60,601 bases of DNA, from positions 1-60,601 of the forward strand of contig JBGSPE010000003.1 in assembly GCA_041738755.1 (NCBI GenBank), given 5' to 3'. The notes under the pieces are model-generated. The model ran no database searches. It was not told the DNA's origin and saw only the letters and a list, made by a program, of their open reading frames with translations. Below, piece after piece: positions 32,757 to 47,588 of this stretch. Position 1 is the first letter of the stretch. The number at the start of each line of letters is the position of its first letter. Source of the DNA: Minisyncoccia bacterium (lineage in GTDB: Bacteria > Patescibacteriota > Minisyncoccia > Phycocordibacterales > UBA918). The position numbers and the translations under genes are program-made.

Positions 32757-32843
32757 ATCCAACAGTATACCAGATTACCACAAATCATTGACTTTTGAGC
32801 AAATTTATGTATAATATTTATATACGTTCCTGAGGAGACGCAA

Positions 32844-32999
32844 ATGAAAACTGCTTTGATTGGTATTTTGTTGGCGGCTTTTGCTGCTATGCAACACCAC
32901 CCGAATGATAACGATATCAGCAGCTGGTGGATACTGGCAGGTATCGGCCTGGGCATGATTATCGGTCGAATCATGGGGAGTTTCAGCTACTCCAACTAA
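32844..32999 (+). CDS. Putative 51-aa hydrophobic small protein (not in the ORF track)
   Basis: MKTALIGILLAAFAAMQHHPNDNDISSWWILAGIGLGMIIGRIMGSFSYSN, with TTGACT-16-TATAAT (32788-32815), SD GAGGAG (32832-37) and a downstream hairpin. Confidence 0.65.
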   Translation: MKTALIGILLAAFAAMQHHPNDNDISSWWILAGIGLGMIIGRIMGSFSYSN

Positions 33000-33074
33000 A
33001 TTCAACCCCGCTACGACATCCCTCACGGTGCATGTCGTGCGGGGTTTCGTTTATCTACCCACATTTTAATTAGA

Positions 33075-33114
33075 CACAAAAATCTCCCTAGGGGAACCCT
33101 AGGGAGATTTTGTG
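33075..33114 (-). terminator. Terminator downstream of rpoD
   Basis: AAAATCTCCCTAGGG-GAA-CCCTAGGGAGATTTT. Confidence 0.8.
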
Positions 33115-33142
33115 AATCATAACTTAACCGAGCTTCTATTAT

Positions 33143-33267
33143 TTAAATCTTAGTAAAATCGATGAGTCACGAGGCGTGGGAGAAAAATATTATGAGGCGT
33201 ACTTCCTGTACGATGAATGATATTTTTGAACCACAACAAAGTGAATCACGATTTTAGTAAGATTTAA
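33143..33267. repeat. Palindromic element copy A (contains the rpoD stop codon)
   Basis: Long hairpin with core CGAGGCG..GAGGCGTAC-loop-GTACG-ATGA..CAACAAAG. Confidence 0.8.
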
Positions 33268-34645
33268 GACGTCGCGCTTTGTCGTGCTGGCGAATCTTCT
33301 CAAGAGCCTTCGCCTCAATCTGTCGAATACGTTCACGCGTCACACCAAACTCCTTCCCTACTTCTTCGAGTGTGTGGTACGTACCATCTAAGAGTCCATG
33401 TCGCATTTCAAGAATCTTTCGTTCTTTATCAGAAAGTGTGTCGAGAATTTCAGTAATCTGGTCAGTCAAAATACTATGAGCCACCTCCTGATCAGGTGAG
33501 GTAATCTTATCATCTGAAATGAAGTCCGAGAGTCGTGATCGATCATCATCATCTCCAACCGGTAGTTCAAGTGAGATAGTATCTTGGCTAATTTTTTCGA
33601 TTTGGTAGATCTTTTCTACTTCGACATTCATCTCAGTGGCAATCTCTTCTGGCATTGGGTCACGACCGAAGTCCTGCGCCAAACGACGTGATACTTGCTT
33701 GTACTTCGCCATCGTTTCCACCATGTGTACCGGGATACGAATGGTTCGTGACTGGTCAGCCAAGGCACGAGTAATGGCTTGGCGAATCCACCAGGTGGCG
33801 TACGTTGAGAATTTAAAGCCCTTCGTGAAGTCGAACTTATCTACTGCCTTGAAGAGGCCAAGGTTTCCTTCTTGAATGAGGTCGAGCAATGTCAGGTCTG
33901 GTGAGCGACCGACATACTTCTTGGCGATTGATACCACAAGACGTAAGTTGGCTCGAGCAAGCAGGTTACGCGCCTCATCATCACCGTCAACAATTCGCTT
34001 GGCGAGGACTCGTTCTTCGTGAGCATTCAGGAGTGGGTACTGACCGATTTCTCGTAAGTACATCTGAATTGAGTCGTAGCTACTATCACTTCGCTTGAAG
34101 CTATTTTTCTTAGCGAGGATTTCCTCGGTCCGATCTTCACCCAACATACCCCCGCTTTGGAGTACATCAATTCCAGCGATACCAAATCGCTCATAGAGTG
34201 TATCGAGAAAATCTACGTCTTTTTCAATCTCAGGGAATGAACGTAAAAGTTCATCGTAGGTAACATACCCACGCTCTTTACCAAGTTGCATCAACTCGGC
34301 AGCTTTTACTTCGAGAATTTTTTGAGCTCTGGTTGAAACAACTCGCTCTGGCTTCACTACTTTTGGTGCAGTTTTAACAGCCGGTTTTGCAACTGCTTTT
34401 TTTGCAACGGTTTTAGCCACTGGTTTAGTGGCTGATTTTACGACTTTCTTGAGGGCTTTTTTGGCAACAACAGGAGCTTTCTTTGCTACTGGCTTAACCT
34501 TTTTTGCTGGCGTCTTCTTGGCGACAACTTTTTTTGCGACCGGCTTTTTAGCTACTGCTTTCTTCGCGGGTGCTTTTTTCTTTGGTGTAACGGCTTTTTT
34601 GACCGCTTTTTTGACGACTTTTTTTGTGGCCTTTTTGGTAGCCAT
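33254..34645 (-). CDS. rpoD: Primary sigma factor sigma70 with a Lys/Ala-rich N-terminal extension
   Basis: [39 protein letters not shown] and [20 protein letters not shown]. Confidence 0.97.
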
Positions 34646-34705
34646 AATGTTCACCACTATACAGAAAATCCTTAAAATGTCCAGCTATCTTCTTCTGTCT
34701 AAGCT

Positions 34706-36445
34706 TTATGTTCCAATCATATCCACTGAATATGGTGGGAGCTTTAGCTTTGTCTCAAGCAGCTTAATTACCTCTAAAGTAGCGAGCAAAAGCGTATCAT
34801 CCTTCATTTCTTCGGCATCCTTGAGGGCTTGTTTGTGCTGAGCCAGCGAACGGCGGATTAAGGCTGTGCGGTATAAATTTAAACGTGAGAGGACTTCTTC
34901 TTGAATCATTTGAAGAGTCATTTTGGCAAACTGCTGTTCAAGGGTAAAGGTAACCCCCGCTAGCTCTGACTCAGGTATTACTTCATCAACCTCCCCTTCT
35001 GACAACTGTGCGAGTTCTTTTCTTAAAAATGAAGTCAATGGTTCTTCAGTAACCGCCAAGGCTGCTTCGAGAAATACCCGGCTACTCTGGGTCACGTCAG
35101 CTCGTTCACTAGAATCTTTTACGACCGACTCCGTAAGCTCATGGTGTGGTAAAGGACCTTGGTTGGTTTCTTCACGCAACCGGTCAAGCTCAAAACGGAC
35201 CGCTTCAGTGGTACTTTTAATCGCACTCGCCACAATCCCGACAAAATGTTCTTGGTCAATTCTATCTGGGAGTAACAGTAAAAACGGCAAAATATCAGTT
35301 CGAGTTTTTCGCTTTAACGCTCGTTCGTCTTTCTCTTCACGAGTGAGAACATGAAGGAGAAAATCAATCACATGGACCGACTTCCCAATAATCTGTTTAA
35401 ACTTCGCTGGGTCTTCTAAAATTAAATCAGCTGGGTCTTTCCCGAGCGGAATCTCAGCTACTTTGACATCAATCCCTCGCTTCAACATCAGTTCAGCCGA
35501 GCGCTTCATCGCTGCGATACCTGCCCTATCCGCATCAAGAGCAAGCACTACCCGGTCTGAGAGACGCTCTAGGAGCTGTACATGATGCAGTGTGAGCGCT
35601 GTACCAGATACAGCGACCGTATTGGTGTACCCGGCTTGATGAGACATCACCACATCAAATTGACCTTCAACAATCAGTGAAAAATTATAGGTTCTGATCC
35701 CCTGCTTGGCTTTATCATACCCGTAGAGCAACTCTGACTTTTTATAGAGCTCTGTCTCAGGTGAGTTTACATACTTTGGAGCTTCGGTGTCTTTGCTTAA
35801 GATTCGACCAGAAAATCCCACTACTTTGCACCCAGTATCACGCAGCGGAAACATAATCCGATCACGAAACACGTCGTACGGCTCTTTACCACCATCAGCT
35901 CCTTTGATTAACCCGACTTGTTGGAGTAATACTTTGGCGTAGCCTTTACCTTCAAGATGTTCTTTGACCTCTCGCCAGCCATGGTGTGGTGGTCCGGGCG
36001 CATACCCTATCTGCCAGTTTTGAATTGTCTCCGGCTTTACGCCGCGATTTGAAAGGTATTCAAGCGCTGCTTTTTCACTGCTGAGTTTATCTCCGTAAAA
36101 CGAAGTGGCGTCAGCCATTGCTGCATACCACTGCTCGCGCTCGGTTTTTTTCTTCGGGTCTTCCGCTACGAGTTCAACCCCAGCCTTTTGCGCCAACTGC
36201 TTCAAAGCCTCTTTGAAGTCGACCCCTTCCATAGCTTGAATAAAGGTAAACATGTCACCGCCTTGAGAAGTAGAAAAGCAATAGTACATCCCTCGATCTG
36301 GAGAGACATAAAATGACGGGGTTTTTTCGGCAGTAAAGGGTGACTTCCCTTTAAAGTTCTTCCCTGCTCGGTGTAACTCTACATACGGAGAAATTACGTC
36401 CAAAATACTGATTCTATCTTTAATCTGTTGCACCGCATCATTCAT
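34706..36445 (-). CDS. dnaG: DNA primase
   Basis: EKTPSF, FRDRIMFP, KYVNSPET, VEGQFD, TOPRIM D.D.AG and KDPAD. Confidence 0.96.
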   Translation of the reverse strand: MNDAVQQIKDRISILDVISPYVELHRAGKNFKGKSPFTAEKTPSFYVSPDRGMYYCFSTSQGGDMFTFIQAMEGVDFKEALKQLAQKAGVELVAEDPKKKTEREQWYAAMADATSFYGDKLSSEKAALEYLSNRGVKPETIQNWQIGYAPGPPHHGWREVKEHLEGKGYAKVLLQQVGLIKGADGGKEPYDVFRDRIMFPLRDTGCKVVGFSGRILSKDTEAPKYVNSPETELYKKSELLYGYDKAKQGIRTYNFSLIVEGQFDVVMSHQAGYTNTVAVSGTALTLHHVQLLERLSDRVVLALDADRAGIAAMKRSAELMLKRGIDVKVAEIPLGKDPADLILEDPAKFKQIIGKSVHVIDFLLHVLTREEKDERALKRKTRTDILPFLLLLPDRIDQEHFVGIVASAIKSTTEAVRFELDRLREETNQGPLPHHELTESVVKDSSERADVTQSSRVFLEAALAVTEEPLTSFLRKELAQLSEGEVDEVIPESELAGVTFTLEQQFAKMTLQMIQEEVLSRLNLYRTALIRRSLAQHKQALKDAEEMKDDTLLLATLEVIKLLETKLKLPPYSVDMIGT

Positions 36446-36539
36446 GTAAGACTAGTATACCGTGATGGATGAAAAGCTCTAAATACTTGATTTTTCTTAG
36501 TGTCGTGGTATTTTCGATACGGAAGCAATGGAGGTATGT

Positions 36540-36905
36540 ATGGCGTGCAGTGTAACATTCACTGTCTGGCCAACCCGCCGACAGTTTCAAGTAAACGTTA
36601 CAAAAGACTTTCAAGAATTTGAACGAATCTATCAATCAGCCCATCTTGAAGCGGCTATTGTATCTGCAAGTTATAGCGTCGAAACGTACATCACGATAGA
36701 ACAAAGTCTAGAGCGATGCACATTTAAGTCTGAAGAATATCTTAATCCCCGTTCACCACTTCGAATAATCATGAGTAGTGGTACCATTCGTTCGTATTGG
36801 AGTTTTGAAACTCGTTCGTGGTATCCACTACCTCTAGATTTAGAAGTTGATGAGGGCTACATAATTGCACGTAGAATGCTGCCACCACCAAAGAAACCAG
36901 TCTAG
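36540..36905 (+). CDS. Hypothetical protein (orphan cassette)
   Basis: ORF with SD GGAGGT (36530-35) and a downstream hairpin followed by TTTCGTTTTTT. Confidence 0.55.
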   Translation: MACSVTFTVWPTRRQFQVNVTKDFQEFERIYQSAHLEAAIVSASYSVETYITIEQSLERCTFKSEEYLNPRSPLRIIMSSGTIRSYWSFETRSWYPLPLDLEVDEGYIIARRMLPPPKKPV

Positions 36906-37003
36906 TACCCCACAGAAGCCCCATGCGCTTGTGTGGGGTTTCGTTTTTTATGTTGTGTCTATGGTTATTTTATGTAGAATCAAGCGAGACTGTGAGGTGA
37001 TGT

Positions 37004-37201
37004 ATGAAATACAAAAGCTTTTTACTGGCTCAGACTGCACTATGGCACCCCTGGCCACGTTTCCTTATAATGGAGATTGAATCAGAATGTAACCGAGAGG
37101 AGCCTTGGGATGGCTGGTTTGGATATGACTTCTCTTCTTTCCGTGACCACAATCATCTTCTACCTCAAAAGCCCACATCAGCGAGCCGCACGGCTCGCTG
37201 A
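37004..37201 (+). CDS. Hypothetical small protein (orphan)
   Basis: 65-aa ORF preceded by GAGGTGA and followed by hairpins. Confidence 0.35.
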   Translation: MKYKSFLLAQTALWHPWPRFLIMEIESECNREEPWDGWFGYDFSSFRDHNHLLPQKPTSASRTAR

Positions 37202-37212
37202 TTTTTTAATGC

Positions 37213-37244
37213 AAAAAGCCGGCCCCGAAGGGGCCGGCTTTTTG
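37213..37244. terminator. Bidirectional terminator (rpoC and orphan gene)
   Basis: AAAAAGCCGGCCCC-GAA-GGGGCCGGCTTTTT. Confidence 0.85.
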
Positions 37245-37259
37245 TTTTCTAGTTTTCTC

Positions 37260-37386
37260 TAAGGCTTCTTAAAATCGATAAGATGCGAGGCGCTCGAAGC
37301 AAATTGTGCCGAGTCGTACGTGATGTACGGTGAGCGCCAATTTGACTGAAGAGCAACAAAGCAGATTGCGATTTAAAGGAGTCTTA
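37260..37386. repeat. Palindromic element copy B (contains the rpoC stop codon)
   Basis: Core CGAGGCG..GAGTCGTAC-loop-GTACG-GTGA..CAACAAAG within a long hairpin. Confidence 0.8.
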
Positions 37387-40300
37387 TTGCTTCGCTTGCA
37401 TGTCCGCAATCATGTCATACTTCGCACTCCCTTGGAAACCAGTTCCAGCTGGGATGAGCTTTCCGATGATGACGTTTTCCATAAGTCCGGCAAGATTGTC
37501 ACTACTTCCCTTTACGGCAGCATTGATCAATACGCGAGTCGTGTTTTGGAATGATGCAGCTGAGAGGAAGCTCTTTCGTGAAAGTGATGTTTCGGTGATT
37601 CCTAGAATCAATCGATCGCCCTTCGCGAGTTCTTTTCCTTCGGCCTTGAGCTTGTTGTTTGCTTCAACAATAATCCACTCTTCGACAATTTCACCAATCG
37701 TGAAATTACTGTCTCCTCGATGAGTAATCTTCATGCGAGTCATCATCTGCTTCACAATCAATTCGATATGCTTTCGTGAGATGGTTACACCTTGGAGTTC
37801 GTAAATCTTATTTACTTCAGAAATGATGTAATCCTGAGTCACTTCTTGTCCACCGTATTTGAAGAGTTCAGGCAAGAGCGCAGAACCGTCAGTCAAGAGT
37901 TGTCCGGCAATGACTGAGTCACCCTTTGAGACGGCAGTGACACGACGGTAGTGTACTCCATATTCAATATTGTCAGCTTTCTTTGGAGCACCCTTCGCGC
38001 CCATGTCTGGTGCAACCACAATCACCTTCTCACGTCCTTCAGTTCGAATGTCAGTTACAACACCGTCACACTTAGAAACGACAGCTGGAATCTTTGGTTG
38101 TCGTTTTTCAAAGACTTCTTCTACACGAGGAAGACCTTGGGTTACGTCTCCTCCGACTGACGCCGCTCCTCCAGCGTGCTTGGTGTTCATCGTCAGCTGT
38201 GTTCCTGGTTCACCAATCGCTTGTGCAGCCACTGTTCCTACCGCTTCTCCAATATCAACCAGCTTGTTCTTTGTGAGGTCGATACCGTAACACTGCTGAC
38301 AGACTCCTCGCAGGGTCTTACAGGTCATTGGTGAACGTACCACCACTGATGAACAGGTAGTACCTTCAACTGCAATCGCATCACGTCGTGAGACGAGGTG
38401 CCCCTTCTTGAAGAGCACTACTCCCTTTCCGTCTACCGCATCTTCGGCGAGGATACGTCCCTTGATTGCCTTTGAGAAGGCAATTTCAATTCCTGAGGCT
38501 GATACTCGACTGATGGTTGTTCCACTCTTCGTCTTACAATCAGCTTCAGTCACAATCGCGTCTTGCGCAACCACGAAGAGTCGTCGAGTAAGGTATCCAG
38601 CCTTGGCAGTTTGAAGCGCCGTGTCAGCGAGACCCTTACGCGAACCGTGAGTCGTGTTGAAGTATTCAATTGGTGTCATACCTTCCTTCATAGAAGAGAG
38701 TACAGGGAACTCAAGAGTCTCTCCTCGAGTGTTAACAATAAGTCCCTTCATACCTGCCATCTGGGCAATTTGTCCGAGTGAGCCTCTAGCACCCGACTTC
38801 CACATTTCGTAGGCAGAACCGTTTTCACTCAAGGTGCTTGGAAGCACCTTTTCGATTTCAGTCTTGGCTCGGTGCCAGATTTCAATAATCATCCGACGTC
38901 GCTCATCACGTGAAAGTAACCCTTCATCGTAGTGTTCAATAATCTGTCGCTCTTCTTCACGTGAGGCTTCGATGATAGCAGCTTTCTCCTTTGGCACGAC
39001 TACTTCGTCGATTCCCCAGGTTACACCTGACTTCGTTGCATACTTGAAACCAAATTTCTTCAGCTTATCGACAATTGGTGGTACCGCTTGAGTTCCTCTA
39101 TCATCGATGATTTCGATGATGATTTGGAAGAGGGTTTTTTGGACTGCCACATCATTGATGAATGGGTAGTCACTTGGAAGCACTGAGTTGAAGAGAAGTC
39201 GTCCAACTGAGGTTTCAAAAATACCACTTTCGTATTGAGCGTACTTTGGTGTGTCGGTTGCAAGCACCTTTACCTTGGCTCGGAAGTCGATAACATCGTA
39301 GTCGAAAGCATTGATAGCATCATTTGGTGAAGCAAAAAACTTCCCTTCACCCTTTGCGCCATCAATTATCTTCGTCATCCAGTAGGCACCAAGAGCCATA
39401 TCAAGCAACTTTTCAGACACGACTGGTTCACTTGAACCTGGCTTGAGAATGTTGTTGTTTGCAGAAATAATTTCCTTCGCTTCAAGTTGTGCCTCATCTG
39501 AGAGTGGTACGTGTACCGCCATCTGGTCACCGTCGAAGTCAGCGTTGAACGCTCGACACACGAGTGGGTGCACCTGAATCGCGTTACCTTCAATCAATAC
39601 TGGTCGGAAGGCTTGAATACCTTGTCGGTGCAGTGTCGGTGCTCGGTTTAGGAGTACGTACTTATGCTTGATAACGTTTTCAAGAATGGCCCATACTTCC
39701 GGCACTCCGTCTTCAATCAAACGCCCTGCGCCACGGATGTTGTATGCCAACTCTTGCTTCAAGAGCTCAGCCACCACAAATGGTCGGAAGAGTTCAAGCG
39801 CCATGTGCTTTGGTAGACCACATTGGTCAAGAGCCAATTCCGGACCAATGATAATTACTGAACGTCCAGAGTAGTCCACACGCTTTCCAAGCAGGTTTTG
39901 ACGGAAGTATCCTTGCTTACTCTTAAGGTAGTCTGAGAGTGACTTCAATGGTCGGCGTTGTGCCTGACTCATGACTGAGTATGCACCACCACCGTGTCGG
40001 ATTGAGTTGTCGATGAGGGCATCAACCGCTTCTTGCAAGATACGCTTTTCGTTTCGCAAGATAACGTCTGGTGCTTGAATATCAATCAACTTCTTCAAAC
40101 GATTGTTTCGGTTGATAACCCGTCGGTACAAGTCATTAAGGTCAGAAGACGCGTGCCGTCCTCCTTCAAGCGCAACCATTGGTCGAATCGCTGGTGGTAC
40201 TACTGGGATACGGGTAAGGAACAACCACTCTGGTCGTACGCCCGCGTTTAGCATCCCACGAATAAGTGAGAGTCGTTTATCGAGCTTGGCTCGTTCCATC

Positions 40301-41061
40301 GCACCCGCCTTGGTGTACGCTTCTTCAAGCTTTTGCGCCAAGTCAGCAAGGTTGATGTTTTTGAAGAGTTCGAAAATCGCTTCAGCTCCAATTTTTGCCT
40401 CGAACAAAGTACTGTACTTAATTGAGAACTTGTGGAAGGTTCCTTCGTCGAGTACGACTCCAGCCTTAATGCTGTCGATTTCTTTTTTGATTTCATCCAT
40501 TCGGGTCTTGAGTGCGTCCCGAGCTTCTTCGTTTTGAAGCGTTTTTATCTTGGTCTTGAATTCAGTATCAAGTTCAGCTTGAATTCTTGTTCGATCACCT
40601 TCGCTTACTTTGGTGACAATGTATCCAGCGAAGTAGATAACTTTTTCAACCGAAGAGGCAGTAATACCAAGAATCATGGCGATTCGACTCGGCACACCTC
40701 GAAGGAACCAGATGTGTGAGACAGGTACACAGAGGTCGATATGACCCATTCGTTCCCGTCGTACAATAGCGCGAGTAATTTCTACGCCACACTTTTCACA
40801 CACGATTCCCTTGTATCGAATACCTCGGTATTTCTTACAAGAACACTCGTAGTCTTCAACGGGACCAAAAATTCGTTCGTCGAAGAGACCGTGCTTTTCT
40901 GGACGTTGTGTTCGGTAGTTAATTGTTTCTGGCTTGGTGACTTCGCCGTGAGACCATTCAAGAATGGTCTCAGGAGAAGCTAGCTTTAGGTTTACTCCAG
41001 TGTACGTCACCGGGGCTGGACTGGTTTTTTTGAAAGTTTCAGTAGACATAGGCGAAGACAT
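37384..41061 (-). CDS. rpoC: RNA polymerase beta' subunit
   Basis: NADFDGD, Zn ribbon CSC..CEKC and GKRVDYSGRS. Confidence 0.99.
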   Translation of the reverse strand: MSSPMSTETFKKTSPAPVTYTGVNLKLASPETILEWSHGEVTKPETINYRTQRPEKHGLFDERIFGPVEDYECSCKKYRGIRYKGIVCEKCGVEITRAIVRRERMGHIDLCVPVSHIWFLRGVPSRIAMILGITASSVEKVIYFAGYIVTKVSEGDRTRIQAELDTEFKTKIKTLQNEEARDALKTRMDEIKKEIDSIKAGVVLDEGTFHKFSIKYSTLFEAKIGAEAIFELFKNINLADLAQKLEEAYTKAGAMERAKLDKRLSLIRGMLNAGVRPEWLFLTRIPVVPPAIRPMVALEGGRHASSDLNDLYRRVINRNNRLKKLIDIQAPDVILRNEKRILQEAVDALIDNSIRHGGGAYSVMSQAQRRPLKSLSDYLKSKQGYFRQNLLGKRVDYSGRSVIIIGPELALDQCGLPKHMALELFRPFVVAELLKQELAYNIRGAGRLIEDGVPEVWAILENVIKHKYVLLNRAPTLHRQGIQAFRPVLIEGNAIQVHPLVCRAFNADFDGDQMAVHVPLSDEAQLEAKEIISANNNILKPGSSEPVVSEKLLDMALGAYWMTKIIDGAKGEGKFFASPNDAINAFDYDVIDFRAKVKVLATDTPKYAQYESGIFETSVGRLLFNSVLPSDYPFINDVAVQKTLFQIIIEIIDDRGTQAVPPIVDKLKKFGFKYATKSGVTWGIDEVVVPKEKAAIIEASREEERQIIEHYDEGLLSRDERRRMIIEIWHRAKTEIEKVLPSTLSENGSAYEMWKSGARGSLGQIAQMAGMKGLIVNTRGETLEFPVLSSMKEGMTPIEYFNTTHGSRKGLADTALQTAKAGYLTRRLFVVAQDAIVTEADCKTKSGTTISRVSASGIEIAFSKAIKGRILAEDAVDGKGVVLFKKGHLVSRRDAIAVEGTTCSSVVVRSPMTCKTLRGVCQQCYGIDLTKNKLVDIGEAVGTVAAQAIGEPGTQLTMNTKHAGGAASVGGDVTQGLPRVEEVFEKRQPKIPAVVSKCDGVVTDIRTEGREKVIVVAPDMGAKGAPKKADNIEYGVHYRRVTAVSKGDSVIAGQLLTDGSALLPELFKYGGQEVTQDYIISEVNKIYELQGVTISRKHIELIVKQMMTRMKITHRGDSNFTIGEIVEEWIIVEANNKLKAEGKELAKGDRLILGITETSLSRKSFLSAASFQNTTRVLINAAVKGSSDNLAGLMENVIIGKLIPAGTGFQGSAKYDMIADMQAKQ

Positions 41062-44000
41062 TACGCAGACTCATAATTACGTCGAGGAGCTTCTTCACGG
41101 TCGAGCCTCACATCAAGGGCGAGACCTCGAAGTTGATTCAAGAGCACATTGAAGGCAGCTGGAGTGTGTGGGTGAGTAATTTTCTCTCCCCGTACAATCG
41201 CATCAAAGGCTGCACTTCGTCCAACAATATCGTCAGACTTGATAGTAAGCATTTCTCGGAGGGTGTAAGCGGCTCCATACCCAAGGAGCGCCCAGACTTC
41301 CATTTCTCCAAACCGCTGTCCTCCCACTTGTGCCTTTCCACCGAGTGGCTGTTGGGTAATAAGTGAGTAGGGACCAATTGATCGCATGTGAATCTTGTCC
41401 TCTACCATGTGGTGGAGTTTCAAGATGTACATGTACCCAACTGCTGTTCGCTGTGCAAACGGCTCACCGGTTTGACCATCGCGAAGTTGAATTTTTCCAT
41501 CTTCTGGAAGACCGGCAGCTTTGAGTTCAGCTTTTACGTCAGTTTCTGTTGCTCCCGCAAATGGCGGAACAATCGCTTGGTACTTGAGAGTATTAGCGGC
41601 CATTCCCAAGTGAAGCTCGAGAATCTGTCCAAGGTTCATGCGACTTGGTACTCCAAGTGGAGTAAGAAGCACATCAACTGGTGTTCCATCTTCCGTGTAT
41701 GGCATATCTTCTTCAGGAAGGATTCGTGAGATAACTCCCTTGTTACCGTGACGACCAGCGAGCTTGTCTCCAACTGAGACATTTCGAACTTGTGCGATAG
41801 TGATGTGGATTCGCTTGATAACACCACTTTCAAGTTGGTCACCATTTTCTCGAGAGAAAATCTTTACACCGATGATACGGCCTCGCTTTCCAGCTTCAAG
41901 TCGAAGTGATGTATCTTTTACATCCTTCGCCTTTTCACCGAAGATTGATCGGAGAAGTCGTTCTTCTGGAGTAAGTTGGGTTTCACCTTTCGGTGTTACC
42001 TTTCCAACCAAAATATCTCCCGGTCGTACTTCTGCACCAATGCGGATGATTCCACTTTCGTCGAGGTTTCGGAGCTTGAGCTCTGAAACGTTTGGAATGT
42101 CAGGGGTTGTGACTTCTGGACCAAGCTTGGTGTCGCGGACTGCGACATCGAGCTCATCGAGGTGAATGGTTGAGAACTTACTTTGCTTTACAAGTCGTTC
42201 TGAAATAATAATCGCGTCTTCGTAGTTGGCACCATTCCAACTCATGAAGGCCACCATAGCATTTTGCCCTACGGCAATCTGACCATTGTCTGTTGATGAG
42301 GTGTCAGCCAAGAGGTCGCCTCGCTTGACCTTTTGTCCAAGCGCTACGGCTGGCCTATGGTAGAAGGCTGAGAAGTCGTTCGTTCGTTGGAATGAAGTGA
42401 GGGTATATTCCTTGTTCTTGCCATCTTTATTCTTTACCACCACCCGCTTGGCATCTACTTCAACCACTTCTCCAGCTTCATCGGCATAAATCACTCGACC
42501 AATATCTCGAGCTGACATCGCTTCAACACCGGTAGCTACAATCGGGGCCTCTTGTACGATACAAGGAGTTGCCTGCTTCTGCATGTTTGAACCCATGAGC
42601 GTACGGTTGGCGTCGTCGTGGTTTAAGAATGGAATCATTGAAGTTGCTACAGAGAATGGTTGATTCGTTGCAATATCCATGAACTCAACTTCTTCTCGGT
42701 CTACCGTACGGGGCTCACCTTTTCGGCGGGCTTCGACGAGTTCATTTTTGATCTTACCTTTATCATCAACTTCAATCGCTGCGTGAGCAATCGTGTATCG
42801 TTCTTCTTCGTGAGCGTTAAAGTACACAACCTCATCAGTCACCTTCCCTTTTACTACTTTAATGTACGGCGTTTCAATAATCCCAAATCGGTTGACTCGT
42901 GAGTACATTGAAAGACGAAGAATCAAACCAATGTTTGGTCCTTCTGGTGTGTGAATTGGGCAGAGCCGTCCGTAGTGAGACGGGTGAACGTCACGGACTT
43001 CAAAGCCCGCTCGTTCCCGAGTAAGTCCTCCTGGACCAAGGGCTGAAAGCGTTCGCAAGTGTTCAACCTCGGCAAGGATGTTTTGTTGTTGTGAGAATTG
43101 TGAGAGTTGGTTGGTGGTGAAGAATTCCTTAATCGCAGCCTGGAGCGGACGCGGATTAATGATTTGCATCGGGAGTGATGTTTCAGCTTCAATCGTAGAC
43201 ATTCGGTCTTGGATATTTCGCTTCATTCGGGTCATACCAACGCGAACTCGTTGTTGCAACATTTCACCGAAGTACCGCACGCGACGGAATCCAAGGTGGT
43301 CAATATCGTCAGGCAACGCAGATGCATCATGGTTTGACGTAATGATATGAGTCAAAATGAGCTTCATGTCATCAGTTGAAATAGTTCGTTCGGCTGTTGC
43401 CTTGGCGGTGATTGGGAGATCAAATCGGTTATTGAAGTGATGTCGTCCAATCTCTGAAAGGTCGTATCGCTCTGGAGCAAAAATTGACTTCACGAATTCA
43501 CGAGCGTTATCCACGGTCGCTAAGTCACCGTCACGAAGACGTTTGTAGATTTCAATATATGAATCATCAACGGTCTTGGCTGGATCTTTTGCCAAGGTAG
43601 CCTTGATGTACTCCTCACCTCGAGGGACGCCCTTCATGAGCGTAATCATTTCTTTATCAGTCGCAAGGCCAAGGACGCGCAAGAGTGAGGTGATTGGGAA
43701 CTTCTTCTTTCGGTCAATCTTTACGTAAATAACACCATCAGCTTCAGATTCAATTTCTACCCAGGCTCCACGAGCTGGGATGATTTTGGCACCAAAGAGT
43801 GTCTTTCCTTTAGATTCAGCAGTGGTGAAGAAGATACCGTATGACCGAGCTAGCTGTGGCACAATGACGCGTTCAACACCGTTGATGATGAACGTACCGT
43901 TATTGGTCATCACTGGCACATCAGCCATGAAGATTTCCTGTTCCTTTTCACTATCGAAGGTCTTGTTCTTCAATACAACCGTCGTTCGAAGTGACGCTTC

Positions 44001-44267
44001 ATAGGTTCGCTTGTTTTCCTTGGCAAACTCTGGCGTACATTTTGGCTCACTTAATTCGTACCGCTTGAATTGCAGTTCAAATTTCTTTTCTGAGTAATCA
44101 GTAATCGGTGAAAATTCCTTGAAAATTTCCTTCAACGCTGTCTCGATGAACCACGTATATGATTCTCGCTGTGGTTGAATGAGGTCTGGTAGTGGTACTC
44201 GTGCGGCCGCGCTTTTCTCAAAACGCTTCTGCGGCAAGTGACCGACTGAAACTTCTTTCGTATGCAT
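41061..44267 (-). CDS. rpoB: RNA polymerase beta subunit
   Basis: GDKLAGRHGNKG, GQRFGEMEVWAL and HYGRLCPIHTPEGPNIGL; start set at MHTKE. Confidence 0.99.
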   Translation of the reverse strand: MHTKEVSVGHLPQKRFEKSAAARVPLPDLIQPQRESYTWFIETALKEIFKEFSPITDYSEKKFELQFKRYELSEPKCTPEFAKENKRTYEASLRTTVVLKNKTFDSEKEQEIFMADVPVMTNNGTFIINGVERVIVPQLARSYGIFFTTAESKGKTLFGAKIIPARGAWVEIESEADGVIYVKIDRKKKFPITSLLRVLGLATDKEMITLMKGVPRGEEYIKATLAKDPAKTVDDSYIEIYKRLRDGDLATVDNAREFVKSIFAPERYDLSEIGRHHFNNRFDLPITAKATAERTISTDDMKLILTHIITSNHDASALPDDIDHLGFRRVRYFGEMLQQRVRVGMTRMKRNIQDRMSTIEAETSLPMQIINPRPLQAAIKEFFTTNQLSQFSQQQNILAEVEHLRTLSALGPGGLTRERAGFEVRDVHPSHYGRLCPIHTPEGPNIGLILRLSMYSRVNRFGIIETPYIKVVKGKVTDEVVYFNAHEEERYTIAHAAIEVDDKGKIKNELVEARRKGEPRTVDREEVEFMDIATNQPFSVATSMIPFLNHDDANRTLMGSNMQKQATPCIVQEAPIVATGVEAMSARDIGRVIYADEAGEVVEVDAKRVVVKNKDGKNKEYTLTSFQRTNDFSAFYHRPAVALGQKVKRGDLLADTSSTDNGQIAVGQNAMVAFMSWNGANYEDAIIISERLVKQSKFSTIHLDELDVAVRDTKLGPEVTTPDIPNVSELKLRNLDESGIIRIGAEVRPGDILVGKVTPKGETQLTPEERLLRSIFGEKAKDVKDTSLRLEAGKRGRIIGVKIFSRENGDQLESGVIKRIHITIAQVRNVSVGDKLAGRHGNKGVISRILPEEDMPYTEDGTPVDVLLTPLGVPSRMNLGQILELHLGMAANTLKYQAIVPPFAGATETDVKAELKAAGLPEDGKIQLRDGQTGEPFAQRTAVGYMYILKLHHMVEDKIHMRSIGPYSLITQQPLGGKAQVGGQRFGEMEVWALLGYGAAYTLREMLTIKSDDIVGRSAAFDAIVRGEKITHPHTPAAFNVLLNQLRGLALDVRLDREEAPRRNYESA

Positions 44268-44555
44268 ACTACAAAATATGTTATTCGAGAGACAACATAA
44301 CAAAAAACCCGCTCCGGCGTTTTATTAGTTTGTATCCCTACCCGATAAATAATATTCTCACAACCGTGAAAGGTTACCCCCGCTTTTTATGACATCTCCC
44401 ATCCAAAACTCATCCGAGATCGCATCCCCTGCGTTTGTGCGAGGATTATACAGCAAGCTATAAATTACGCAAGGGTTTAAAGGGTACAATTTGACGAATC
44501 CCTTCAAATTAGTATGGTTAAAAGCAGTCAGTCACGAATTTATCAGGAGTTCATC

Positions 44556-44864
44556 ATGTTCCTTGCCAAAAAAGTAGCGTTTATCGTCGCCCCCTTGGAG
44601 TCATACAAAAACCCTAATCTGCTCCCAAAGCAAACGGTACGCCTTGAAAAAGCTGATTTTCCAGTCCTTTCGGTTGGTTTAACCTATCACCTTACCGTCG
44701 AACCCTATACTTTTGGTGATAATAAATCGACCTATGACTCTGTAGAAATAAAAGTACAGGCAATTACATACCGTGAAGCAGATGGTTGTTATGTCTTAGT
44801 TTGCACTGCCGGCGCCTATTGTTACCCTGGACTTTGTCTCACCTTTGGTGAAGCTGAATTCTAG
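44556..44864 (+). CDS. Hypothetical protein (orphan cassette)
   Basis: SD AGGAG (44545-49) before MFLAKK; downstream hairpin AGACCCCTCA/TGAGGGGTCT. Confidence 0.55.
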   Translation: MFLAKKVAFIVAPLESYKNPNLLPKQTVRLEKADFPVLSVGLTYHLTVEPYTFGDNKSTYDSVEIKVQAITYREADGCYVLVCTAGAYCYPGLCLTFGEAEF

Positions 44865-45001
44865 ATTAGCAGCCCAAGACCCCTCATCTGAGGGGTCTTC
44901 TTGTATTTGTAGCAGCTCGAGCAAGATACATTGATGCAGAAGTTGAAATTTGAGCACGTATTCACTATATTTACATACATCACCGAGAACGGAGGGATAC
45001 C

Positions 45002-45391
45002 ATGTACTTTGATTTCGCATCATTCAAAAAATCACTGCAGGGTTATACTGAGCCTTTATGCAGAACTGTGCACGAAAGTTATCATGAGATTCCAATGGTG
45101 TTGATTGCAACAAGAAAGGGTTGTCATCAGTACTGGGTAAACAATAAACCCAAAAGTATCGGGGGCGTCTTAGGATTCCTTCTTTTTAACATTTTTATGT
45201 TGCTCGTGTTGCTACTCTTCATGTTGTGGTCAGCGTTTCATAATCTTGAAAGAAATGAGCCTGGCTGGCTTATTATGGGATTCTTTCTAGGTCTCTATGC
45301 TCTTTCAATTCCGATAGCACTACTGATACTGGTACTCTTCAATACGAAGTTTGGGTTACCGAACTACCCGCAGACATGGACGATGGACTAG
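45002..45391 (+). CDS. Hypothetical 2-TM membrane protein (orphan cassette)
   Basis: SD GGAGG (44991-95), two hydrophobic helices and a terminator at 45402-45430. Confidence 0.6.
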   Translation: MYFDFASFKKSLQGYTEPLCRTVHESYHEIPMVLIATRKGCHQYWVNNKPKSIGGVLGFLLFNIFMLLVLLLFMLWSAFHNLERNEPGWLIMGFFLGLYALSIPIALLILVLFNTKFGLPNYPQTWTMD

Positions 45392-45432
45392 ACACACAAG
45401 TAAAAGGCCGCACTATTGTGCGGCCTTTTTGC

Positions 45433-46104
45433 TTATCTGCCTCGGTATTTTTCAATCGCTTTATGATCCCCTTCTACTAACACAGCTGGGACAGGGTGGT
45501 CTTTTTTCTTATACACCAACGTCGCTGGTCTGGTGTACGTTTCGCCACTGGTGACTCTATCATCTTCAAGTGAATCATGGGTACCGAGGACACCTTTTAT
45601 GTGTCTGGCGGTTGCATCAATAATAGTTAATGCTGGAAGCTCTCCGCCCGTAAGCACGTAGTCACCAACGCTTACTTCCTCGGCATTCAAAATCTCTTTA
45701 ACCCTAGCATCTATTCCTTCATACCGACCGCTAATTAAAACTAAGTGTTCGTACGTTGCGACGTAGGATTTAGCTAATTCTTGCGTAAAGACTGTTCCGC
45801 GTGGCGACATGATTAAGGTCTTAATCTTTGTTTGATCTTTTTTCCGTCCGACTGCTTTCTCCCAGGCTTTTAAAATTGGTTCGGCTTGCATCACCATTCC
45901 TGGACCACCACCGTATGGACGTGCATCAACACGGTTATGTTTGTCACGGGTGAAGTCGCGCGGATTGTAATATGTCACTTCAATTTTCTTCCCACGAACT
46001 TTGGCCCCTTTCCCCTTCTCTGTTTTCTGAGCCCGTCCAAGTACACTCGCATCAGTATACGCAGCGCAGACTTCCGGAAATAACGTAATAACGTGAAATT
46101 TCAT
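45433..46104 (-). CDS. trmD: tRNA (guanine37-N1)-methyltransferase
   Basis: PYGGGPGM, GRYEGIDAR and SVGDYVLTGGE. Confidence 0.97.
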   Translation of the reverse strand: MKFHVITLFPEVCAAYTDASVLGRAQKTEKGKGAKVRGKKIEVTYYNPRDFTRDKHNRVDARPYGGGPGMVMQAEPILKAWEKAVGRKKDQTKIKTLIMSPRGTVFTQELAKSYVATYEHLVLISGRYEGIDARVKEILNAEEVSVGDYVLTGGELPALTIIDATARHIKGVLGTHDSLEDDRVTSGETYTRPATLVYKKKDHPVPAVLVEGDHKAIEKYRGR

Positions 46105-46107
46105 AAC

Positions 46108-46509
46108 TTAGATATAAATATAGTAGCCGTGTTCCGGTGCCTCTTCAACTTCTCTAAAATACTTTTTCCATTGTTCTAATCTTCTTTCGCCACCAAGGGA
46201 ATCTTCATTATACGGAGATACCCAGAACCGGGTTTCTCCTGTATCTTGCGCGACAGCTTGAATGCAAGTTAAAACGTATTGCATATCGACACCTGGACGT
46301 TTAAAGGCAGGTTTATCAAGTGACGCCTCGTCAGAGTCTCGATCATACGTTGCATATATGAGCTCAGGAGCACCACGATTTTCTTCCTGCAAAGAATTAA
46401 TATTTACCACAACATGCGGAAATATATATTGTGTAATACCTGGCCGCTTAGATATTACTTCGAAGGCTGGAGGTTTCGTATTCTCGCGTGGTAATGATTC
46501 ATTATTCAT
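46108..46509 (-). CDS. Hypothetical protein
   Basis: ORF packed between the NUDIX gene and trmD; start set at MNNES. Confidence 0.6.
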   Translation of the reverse strand: MNNESLPRENTKPPAFEVISKRPGITQYIFPHVVVNINSLQEENRGAPELIYATYDRDSDEASLDKPAFKRPGVDMQYVLTCIQAVAQDTGETRFWVSPYNEDSLGGERRLEQWKKYFREVEEAPEHGYYIYI

Positions 46510-46513
46510 ACAT

Positions 46514-46945
46514 TTACAACTTATTCTTATACCGTTCAAGAAAGAGTGGAAACTGGGAGTGCTGTGGTTCTGGAATTTCATTTACTTTACACCACCTAAT
46601 TTCAGCACATTTTTCAGGCTCCATAATTTGTACTTCCCCACGGTTCACTTGTGCTCGGTAATCAAATGCTAGCCAATGGGTTGGTTTACCATCATGTTCT
46701 CGTAACACTTCTCGTACACCGAGATATTCAAAATTAAATGGTGTTCCTCCTGTTTCCTCAATAACTTCGCGAATGATTGCCGCTTCGATTGATTCGCCAA
46801 ATTTTAATCTCCCACCTCCGAGCGGTTCCCAGGTAAAGTGTTCGTCACGGCATTTATCAGTCCGGAGACTCACCAGATAGTTTCCTTCTCCATCATGAAG
46901 AAACGGAACGACCGCAATACCGATATAATCAACTCCTTTAATCAT
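46514..46945 (-). CDS. NUDIX hydrolase
   Basis: Nudix box GRLKFGESIEAAIIREVIEETG and EPEKC. Confidence 0.9.
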   Translation of the reverse strand: MIKGVDYIGIAVVPFLHDGEGNYLVSLRTDKCRDEHFTWEPLGGGRLKFGESIEAAIIREVIEETGGTPFNFEYLGVREVLREHDGKPTHWLAFDYRAQVNRGEVQIMEPEKCAEIRWCKVNEIPEPQHSQFPLFLERYKNKL

Positions 46946-46959
46946 GGTTGCATGCTAGC

Positions 46960-46997
46960 ACAAAAACAACGGGCGCCGAAGCGCCCGTTGTTTTTGT
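46960..46997 (-). terminator. Terminator after khpA
   Basis: AAAAACAACGGGCGC-CGAA-GCGCCCGTTGTTTTT. Confidence 0.8.
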
Positions 46998-47014
46998 TTC
47001 TTCGACACCTCCTC

Positions 47015-47131
47015 AGGATTTAGGCTGAGGAAAGTTCGAGACGTGCAAAGAATTTTGAGGAAGGCGTACCTAGATGTACGTTGACCGAAAAATTCTGCAG
47101 CACAACAATGAAATTTTCCAGCCTAAATTCT
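47015..47131. repeat. Palindromic element copy C (contains the khpA stop codon)
   Basis: Core CGAGACG..GAAGGCGTAC-loop-GTACG-TTGA..CAACAATG within a long hairpin. Confidence 0.8.
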
Positions 47132-47476
47132 TAGGTCTTCGATGGCTTGGTCGAGGGACTTGGTTTCACTAACCGGATTATCTTCCTTCATCGCTTCTGA
47201 CATTTCACGGCTCATACCCTTCCCTCCTTCTGGTTCATTGATTTTGAGATTCACCCGAGCGTCGTGCTTCATCCCAACCACTCGCAAGAGGGTTCGAATG
47301 GCTTTGGCGGTATTACCTGAGCGACCGATAATCTTCCCCATATCGTCAGCGTGTACATCAAGCGTGAGAAGTACTCCCATTTCGTCTACGGTTCGATTGA
47401 TCTTTACGGTATCTGGGTGGTCAACGAGTGCCTTTACGAGCGTTTCGAGAAATTGCTTATCTTCGTGCATATCCAT
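47123..47476 (-). CDS. khpA: KH-domain RNA-binding protein KhpA (YlqC)
   Basis: LVDHPD.V and DMGKIIGRSGNTAKAIRTLL; follows rpsP. Confidence 0.92.
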   Translation of the reverse strand: MDMHEDKQFLETLVKALVDHPDTVKINRTVDEMGVLLTLDVHADDMGKIIGRSGNTAKAIRTLLRVVGMKHDARVNLKINEPEGGKGMSREMSEAMKEDNPVSETKSLDQAIEDLRI

Positions 47477-47588
47477 ACATCTATATCTTATCTATAACTG
47501 GTAAGCATCCATTACAAGATTGCAACGGGCCTTACATAAAATCATACGAGACTGACTCGTTTGCGTCAACAACAAAAAGTGGAGTAGC

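Follow-up and report, generated by a model that had tools for sequence, protein, structure and literature searches.

A covarying palindromic element of about 130 nt at the ends of rpoD, rpoC and khpA in a Minisyncoccia genome belongs to a possibly mobile repeat family found across many bacterial phyla

In a Minisyncoccia bacterium (GenBank assembly GCA_041738755.1, contig JBGSPE010000003.1), the stretch of 60,601 nt that we analysed (hereafter the window) carries a hairpin of about 130 nt at the 3' end of each of three core genes, rpoD, rpoC and khpA. These three hairpins belong to a large family of small repeats that occurs across many bacterial phyla, keeps its internal loops and its pairing while its stem sequences vary freely, and differs in copy number and position even between species of one genus. 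We interpret the copies as a non-autonomous, palindromic mobile element resembling MITEs (miniature transposable elements with inverted repeats) and REPINs, patchily distributed across phyla; in its full form, including mobilisation by a Y1 transposase, we give this proposal about an even chance. The copies and the gene features around them are as follows.

33142..33270, plus strand: element copy 1 (covariance model, 112.1 bits, E 2.3e-27); hairpin pairs 33142..33268
33170-33176, 33194-33202, 33208-33216 and 33234-33241: motifs of copy 1, namely CGAGGCG, GAGGCGTAC, GTACGATGA and CAACAAAG
33254..33256, minus strand: TAA stop of the sigma-70 gene (rpoD), inside the 3' arm of copy 1
33078..33115, minus strand: terminator-like GC-rich hairpin with T run, downstream of copy 1 in the direction of the gene (minus-strand scan call)
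37258..37390, plus strand: element copy 2 (covariance model, 107.2 bits); hairpin pairs 37260..37386
37384..37386, minus strand: TAA stop of rpoC, forming the outermost three pairs in the 3' arm of copy 2
37211..37245, no strand assigned: symmetric GC-rich hairpin resembling a bidirectional terminator, preceded by an A run, followed by a T run and situated downstream of copy 2 in the direction of the gene
47012..47141, plus strand: element copy 3 (covariance model, 107.5 bits); hairpin pairs 47012..47134
47123..47125, minus strand: TAG stop of the gene for a KhpA-type KH-domain protein, inside the 3' arm of copy 3
46960..46998, no strand assigned: terminator-like, symmetric GC-rich hairpin flanked by runs of A and T and situated downstream of copy 3 in the direction of the gene

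The covariance model, which was built from 7 copies, placed the three copies where the original prediction, made from the letters of the window, had put them, all on the plus strand. They have in common CGAGGCG or CGAGACG, GAG..CGTAC-loop-GTACG.TGA, and CAACAAAG or CAACAATG (that is, CAACAA(A/T)G), and the stems between these loop motifs differ in sequence from copy to copy and still pair, as had been described. The adjoining genes are all minus-strand open reading frames (ORFs), coding for a sigma-70 factor of 467 aa (33254..34657), RpoC of 1225 aa (37384..41061) and a KhpA-type KH protein of 117 aa (47123..47476). The three stop codons were indeed found within the outer 3' arm, in the same orientation to the gene each time, and coding sequence reaches into the stem, where the last four codons of rpoD (L K S Y, 33257-33268) and the last three of khpA are paired. 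A GC-rich hairpin with a T run follows each copy in the gene direction, in agreement with the terminators that had been noted, although this is partly a reading by eye: the scan called the hairpin at 37211..37245 on the plus strand only, its minus-strand T run being read by eye, and the one at 46960..46998 was recognized by eye with no call from the terminator scan. The element itself was ruled out as an intrinsic terminator, as no T run directly follows it and separate terminator-like hairpins do.

The original prediction had named a scan for further copies as a check on the family, and copies were abundant. The model detected 21 full-length copies (E<=2e-12) in the 958-kb, 11-contig genome, and all 24 searched genomes of the same genus carried the element, with 1 to at least 77 matches each. 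It turned up in 1 of 16 genomes that belong to different families of the order, and in 5 of 150 genomes sampled from the rest of the phylum. A motif scan of 185,579 species genomes returned at least 120 stretches, 80 of which are the loci listed; among the matches listed, nearly all are 46-51 nt long against a spread of 45-67 nt expected by chance, and about 26 are estimated to be chance hits. The taxa among the matches listed comprise Methylomirabilota/Rokubacteria, Bryobacterales and other Acidobacteriota, Binatia, Deltaproteobacteria, Chloroflexota, Omnitrophota, Planctomycetes, Verrucomicrobia and several classes of Patescibacteria. On the 80 listed loci the covariance model gave 87 matches, mostly full length and with up to 71% G+C, and one viral contig also matches the element motif. 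Head-to-tail copies, adjoining or about 360 nt apart, occur in some genomes (G315:C19:83137-84053; G024:C45:9451-9712; G024:C8:53814-54081). The element family is restricted neither to the candidate phyla radiation (CPR) nor to the source genome.

Between species of the genus, copies have been gained and lost. A copy follows rpoD in only 6 of 30 congeners, with at least two unrelated subtypes among them, while the other 24 have none and the RpoD C-terminus (...RRLKSY) is unchanged in all 30 genomes. At five sites a congener has a copy where the source genome has none. Some sites, including khpA, C5:36562 and C6:56441 among others, are occupied in two to four species, and where several species hold a copy at an orthologous site, the stems differ between them, as do even the apical subtypes. 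In the reads of 4 DNA runs from one study, mapped to positions 32500-47500 of the window, neither an empty allele nor an excision product was seen; identical contigs span all three copies with no joint at the element ends, and the joints listed in the read assembly lie within conserved genes and have short sides.

Outside the genus, the family can reach a high copy number in near-identical form. In a 6.9-Mb Bryobacterales genome the element is a unit of 184-186 nt with inverted termini, of which 84 were found in forward and 86 in reverse orientation, paired 166 or 179 nt apart; this subfamily amounts to about 85 near-identical units of about 185 nt with sharp inverted ends. Three related Bryobacterales genomes contain 44-61 matches with 82-94% identity, whose ends fall within 1-2 bases of the same positions. 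The Bryobacterales units have CTAG, CTAA or TTAG on both sides, and a Rokubacteria subfamily with an extra 5' arm is likewise bounded by CTAG. The flanks on both sides fit a YTAR target with a duplication of 2-4 bp. The element is small and non-coding and has terminal inverted repeats, the traits by which MITEs are recognized, and both presence or absence at given sites and variable copy number were observed.

We observed further repeats at the end of rpoD. The rpoD 3' flanks of four congeners (L063, L065, L066 and L057) repeat the last ~24 nt of the gene once or twice more in direct orientation, written in different synonymous codons. Ahead of each extra copy stand the gene end as an inverted repeat, a hairpin resembling a terminator and a shorter, element-like hairpin with a GAG-stem-CGA apical motif, which looks like the tandem accretion of small modules that each bring the 3' end of the gene with them. 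At empty rpoD sites (L056, L057, L062, L063, L065 and L066) the last 9-12 coding bases recur as their reverse complement directly after the stop codon, synonymous changes being mirrored in it; in the source genome the core of the element stands in the middle of the equivalent rpoD-end palindrome.

The element has the anatomy of a single long hairpin of about 130 nt with variable, covarying stems and three conserved internal loops that are purine-rich and non-complementary. These are CGAGGCG facing CAACRAAG, a GAG..YGA tandem G-A loop beneath a 5-bp apical stem, and an AAAAT/ATTTT stem. The unpaired parts of the element strand are purine-rich, with tandem G-A facing G-A. A K-turn reading of the apical loop was ruled out on inspection, the loop being a symmetric 4x4 loop without a 3-nt bulge. 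To quantify the pairing, 56 copies from the source genome and its congeners were aligned with the model, and the figures consequently lean towards the structure to which the alignment was fitted. Standard pairs filled 95.0% of cells, compared with 63.7% in shuffles and 36-48% with slid partners; compensatory double changes were seen at all 37 pairs, the covariation score was 0.80 against 0.21 in shuffles, and none of the 500 shuffles reached any of the observed measures of pairing or covariation. On an independent MAFFT alignment of 7 copies, RNAalifold found double changes at 27 of 38 pairs. The proposed structure-conserved, covarying family is thereby borne out.

The folding is strand-specific. 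Over the 37 pairs of the 56 copies, the element strand contains 139 G-U and 13 A-C combinations, and the excess recurs in copies from other phyla (73 versus 29 in GC-rich and 70 versus 12 in AT-moderate copies), in line with the earlier statement that G-U pairs favour the strand antisense to the mRNA. All 21 copies of the genome fold better on the element strand; in the window, the plus strand, antisense to the genes, reaches -49.7, -49.8 and -53.8 kcal/mol for copies 1, 2 and 3, whereas the mRNA strand reaches -38.4, -33.2 and -40.2 kcal/mol, which is 10-17 kcal/mol weaker. Mutation biases linked to transcription or replication would favour G-T on the sense strand. The observed asymmetry runs in the opposite direction, and we read it as a sign that selection probably acts on the folding of the element strand only, either as single-stranded DNA (ssDNA) or as RNA.

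The position of the copies relative to genes is as regular as their structure. Of the 21 copies in the source genome, 19 are found downstream of a gene to which their element strand is antisense, and 18 overlap or abut a stop codon (including that of rpmE once short ORFs are counted); one copy lies 70 nt past the stop codon, beyond a terminator. Among 35 copies of congeners, 29 have an opposite-strand ORF ending 5-27 nt inside the 3' end of the model and one has only a same-strand gene end, so that the fixed orientation at gene ends claimed for three copies holds for the family in this genus. The adjoining stops are TAA in 36 cases, TAG in 10 and TGA in 1 (n=47; some sites are orthologous and the counts are not independent), compared with 72 TGA stops among 592 long ORFs genome-wide. 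After the stop, 16 of the 47 copies show AA(A/T), which is the conserved ATTTTA arm in reverse complement, and these genes therefore end on a TAA supplied by the element. Convergent genes each bear a copy of their own, oppositely oriented; orientation therefore follows the gene and not the replication strand, and a replication-strand rule was ruled out both by these pairs and by two copies on contig C5 that lie 4 kb apart and differ in orientation.

The two exceptions in the source genome are sense-oriented and stand immediately upstream of rpsS and of a thrS-like gene. At the rpsS copy the ribosomal-protein operon appears to be broken; in a congener this site is occupied by a copy with the usual orientation. 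About 600 nt upstream of rpsS (C5:52470-53100; L013 1632-2258), in the place expected for rplB, contain no ORF of at least 50 aa, and Rfam gave no match in this ORF-free stretch.

The original prediction had left two options, a mobile unit of MITE type or of the repetitive extragenic palindrome (REP) type, and a shared regulator in the 3' untranslated region (UTR) of genes for the expression machinery. The mobile unit is the better fit of the two, given a copy number of 1 to at least 77, filled and empty sites, and a near-identical high-copy subfamily elsewhere. The 3'-UTR regulator is not supported, in that the mRNA strand bears the A-C mismatches, the host genes are unrelated and the sets of copies differ between species. 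The mechanism that we propose for the mobile element starts from what was observed, namely the gain and loss of copies from one species to another and bursts that can reach a near-identical high copy number. Insertion would take place at TA-containing YTAR or CTAG sites, and in gene-dense genomes the tolerated sites would mostly be stop codons, so that the element would come to abut or overlap TAA or TAG, between the stop and the gene's own terminator. As a YTAR target holds TAG or TAA and insertion elsewhere would mostly be lethal, the overlap with stops could therefore be accounted for without invoking a function. Selection would act on the strand antisense to the host gene in its single-stranded form, most likely as folded ssDNA, recognized in trans by a hairpin-recognizing HUH/Y1 transposase similar to REP-associated tyrosine transposases (RAYTs) that reads the internal loops and not the stem sequence. 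For the host gene the copy would be a passenger that leaves a long hairpin, weaker and with A-C mismatches, where the 3' UTR begins.

A candidate for such an enzyme exists outside the window. The source genome encodes a single RAYT-like Y1 (HUH) protein of 237 aa (C6:10469-11179, minus strand) with HUH- and Y-like motifs, which scores 38.8-40.3 bits with PF01797 and 43.7 bits with NF047646 (NCBIfam), under the latter's cut-off of 80. Homologues are present in 22 of 41 genomes of the genus, including all six congeners with at least 26 element matches, and among element-bearing genomes the median number of matches was 7.5 without the gene (n=8) and 15 with it (n=17), in genomes that are related and not independent. 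Y1 enzymes act on folded single strands and read irregularities of the hairpin, as is reported for IS608 and REP-RAYT systems, and the reading of a folded strand by such an enzyme would fit both the wobble asymmetry and the conserved loops. RVT_1 (reverse transcriptase) was not found in the source genome, which is 99.68% complete, and a retroelement route was rejected on that ground; TnpB, rve, IS110, DDE_3 and DDE_Tnp_1 were not found either. The genome also encodes one tyrosine recombinase (306 aa) and two serine recombinases. The RAYT-like Y1 gene is the only classical transposase found in high-copy genomes, and its link to the element is weak. A search for an autonomous partner with the same ends, which was not exhaustive, revealed none; canonical IS200-like loci carried no copy, and the Y1 loci of the Bryobacterales genome had no such inverted ends. 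Across the order, homologues with a length of 200-300 aa occur commonly and often in multiple copies, with up to 13 matches.

Several results weigh against this proposal. Eight of the 25 element-bearing genomes of the genus have no RAYT-like gene, Y1 genes occur in 75 of 121 genomes of the order, including 9 that are element-free by the model, and the genome of another family that contains a copy gave no Y1 match. No model match (E<=1) lies within 1.5 kb of the RAYT-like gene of the source genome, and only 2 of 14 RAYT-like loci hold an element copy. Flanks of the CTAG/TA kind are classically a signature of DDE enzymes (IS630/IS5) and not of Y1, and in the five filled and empty pairs of the genus, which are too diverged for the ends to be fixed, a target duplication was not resolvable. 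An orientation rule that follows the gene is not predicted by known ssDNA transposition. In large Bryobacterales genomes just 2 of 13 copies abut a confident gene end, both of them sense-oriented; lying at stop codons and obeying the orientation rule thus characterize compact genomes, a pattern that points to selection after insertion and not to targeting. As for the gene-relative orientation bias of small genomes, a possible cause is that the strongly folding strand, placed in the mRNA right at the stop codon, would be harmful to essential genes, so that only the weaker orientation survives. Furthermore, old and diverged copies in the genome (pairwise identity with a median of 64% and a maximum of 77%) are still paired, which is unexpected for decaying selfish copies and could indicate selection at each locus. 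High divergence with intact pairing and loops reflects either rapid turnover or selection on each copy; rapid turnover is suggested because orthologous sites hold differing subtypes. Loops kept across phyla beside variable termini are, in addition, the opposite of what ordinary MITEs show.

Part of this evidence would fit a structured signal at gene 3' ends that is selected by the host, in which the folded element strand, as antisense RNA or template-strand DNA, is bound by a conserved protein and acts on the upstream gene, for instance on the stability of the mRNA 3' end, antisense control or termination, with mobility being secondary. The persistence of about 95% pairing at a median identity of 64%, the loops conserved across phyla, the strict orientation in small genomes and the sites shared by two to four species all argue for it, and the purine-rich loops with tandem G-A may resemble protein-binding RNA motifs. 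However, a copy number of 1 to at least 77 within one genus, the 24 of 30 congeners without a copy after rpoD and the 145 of 150 sampled phylum genomes without a match are hard to reconcile with a host signal, as are the different subtypes at orthologous sites, the functionally unrelated host genes and the large genome in which most copies lie away from gene ends. Nor does the element strand appear to have a promoter of its own: in the 21 flanks upstream of the element strand no conserved -35/-10 sequence was seen at a fixed distance and a terminator often stands there, immediately upstream. Promoter scan hits inside copies 1 and 3 were rejected as an element-strand promoter because they rest on variable or poorly matching hexamers. 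We consider the host signal possible but unlikely. Its far-reaching version, a cross-phylum single-strand signal that marks gene 3' ends, uses the loops as a docking site for a conserved protein and has a functional antisense orientation at stop codons (for example to control, via the template strand or an antisense RNA, how the 3' ends of core genes are formed in reduced genomes), we regard as distinctly doubtful.

An ordinary MITE moved as double-stranded DNA (dsDNA) by cut-and-paste, with a DDE transposase of the IS630/Tc1-like or IS5-like type and a TA or YTAR target, is an unlikely alternative to the Y1-based proposal; the conserved centre would then be a site for the transposase or a host factor, and the excess of G-U pairs a by-product. 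CTAG is the insertion site of IS630, which duplicates TA, and the sequence duplicated by IS5 is YTAR. The inverted termini, the CTAG, CTAA or TTAG on both sides (fitting a TA, 3-bp or 4-bp duplication), the sharp unit ends at high copy number and the deficit of TGA among adjoining stops (1 of 47) all agree with such a mechanism. The enzymes themselves, in contrast, were scarce: DDE_3 (IS630-type) was found in 2 and DDE_Tnp_1 (IS5-type) in 6 of 41 genomes of the genus, and neither in the source genome nor in the four genomes with 54-77 element matches. A dsDNA mechanism also does not predict the 139:13 wobble asymmetry, and a conserved centre with variable termini inverts the usual pattern of MITEs.

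A recombination site like integron attC, an imperfect palindrome defined by structure whose folded bottom strand is recombined by a tyrosine recombinase, is highly improbable: size, variable sequence with conserved structure, location at the ORF 3' end with stop overlap, folding of the strand antisense to the ORF and the presence of one tyrosine recombinase gene would suit it, but the consensus has no paired RYYYAAC/GTTRRRY (R/L) boxes, the copies are dispersed behind housekeeping and other core genes and not in cassette arrays, there is no integron integrase, and the one recombinase, of 306 aa, resembles what would be expected for an enzyme of the Xer type.

The element was further compared with known families of small repeats. 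Like the palindromes of REP/REPIN-RAYT systems, it is non-coding and extragenic, folds as a single strand, lies mostly just after genes and varies in copy number between relatives, in a genome with a single-copy RAYT-like gene. It differs in being one 130-nt hairpin with three conserved asymmetric loops, whereas REPs are 20-40 nt or doublets of these, in the high divergence of its copies within a genome with a core conserved across phyla, and in that its copies do not flank the RAYT-like gene, itself below the family cut-off. The GTAG or CGTC tag of REP units (PMC3733652) is absent from the element consensus of both 56 and 87 copies. With MITEs that use TA or CTAG targets (the IS630-type Correia and Nezha, and IS5-type ones) it shares a length of 130-190 nt, inverted ends, a long hairpin, CTAG/YTAR flanks, high copy number with sharp ends, and filled and empty sites; unlike them, it has a conserved centre instead of conserved termini and a strong strand-specific wobble bias, and no matching DDE transposase was found in the copy-richest genomes. 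Enterobacterial repetitive intergenic consensus (ERIC/IRU) sequences and Rickettsia palindromic elements (RPEs), both compared by description only, are likewise imperfect palindromes of about 100-150 nt that lie inside transcribed parts of compact genomes. RPEs insert into ORFs and keep the frame. Here, by contrast, the ORF ends at or just inside the element, and the RpoD C-terminus is unchanged in 30 of 30 genomes.

The family is apparently undescribed. Rfam 15 gave no match to the element: the window at gathering score yields only a group I intron, and five copies searched at E<=1 and two further loci yielded nothing. No matching description was found in the literature that was searched, where the motif strings returned only chance matches to primers and templates. 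Small palindromic repeats are usually treated as lineage-specific, and in this family the loops are kept from Patescibacteria to Acidobacteriota and Methylomirabilota while the stems are free. In sub-megabase genomes it occupies the few bases between the stop and the terminator of core genes, and the covariance model can be used to mask or annotate a repeat that would otherwise resemble a novel non-coding RNA at many gene ends. The family offers a natural case of strand-specific structural selection that lets one ask which single-stranded intermediate a miniature element uses, and it is a candidate substrate for the abundant, uncharacterized RAYT-like Y1 genes of CPR bacteria. If functional, the orientation rule would have a bearing on what gives the essential mRNAs of reduced genomes their 3' ends.

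Two other features of the window were recorded. The group I catalytic intron lies at positions 156-433 on the minus strand (Rfam RF00028, 77.1 bits) and matches the full length of the model. At the N-terminus of the sigma-70 ORF (window 34300-34657), about 113 residues weakly match the histone H1-like family HC2 (E 4.3e-5, below the cut-off), which suggests a lysine- and alanine-rich extension.

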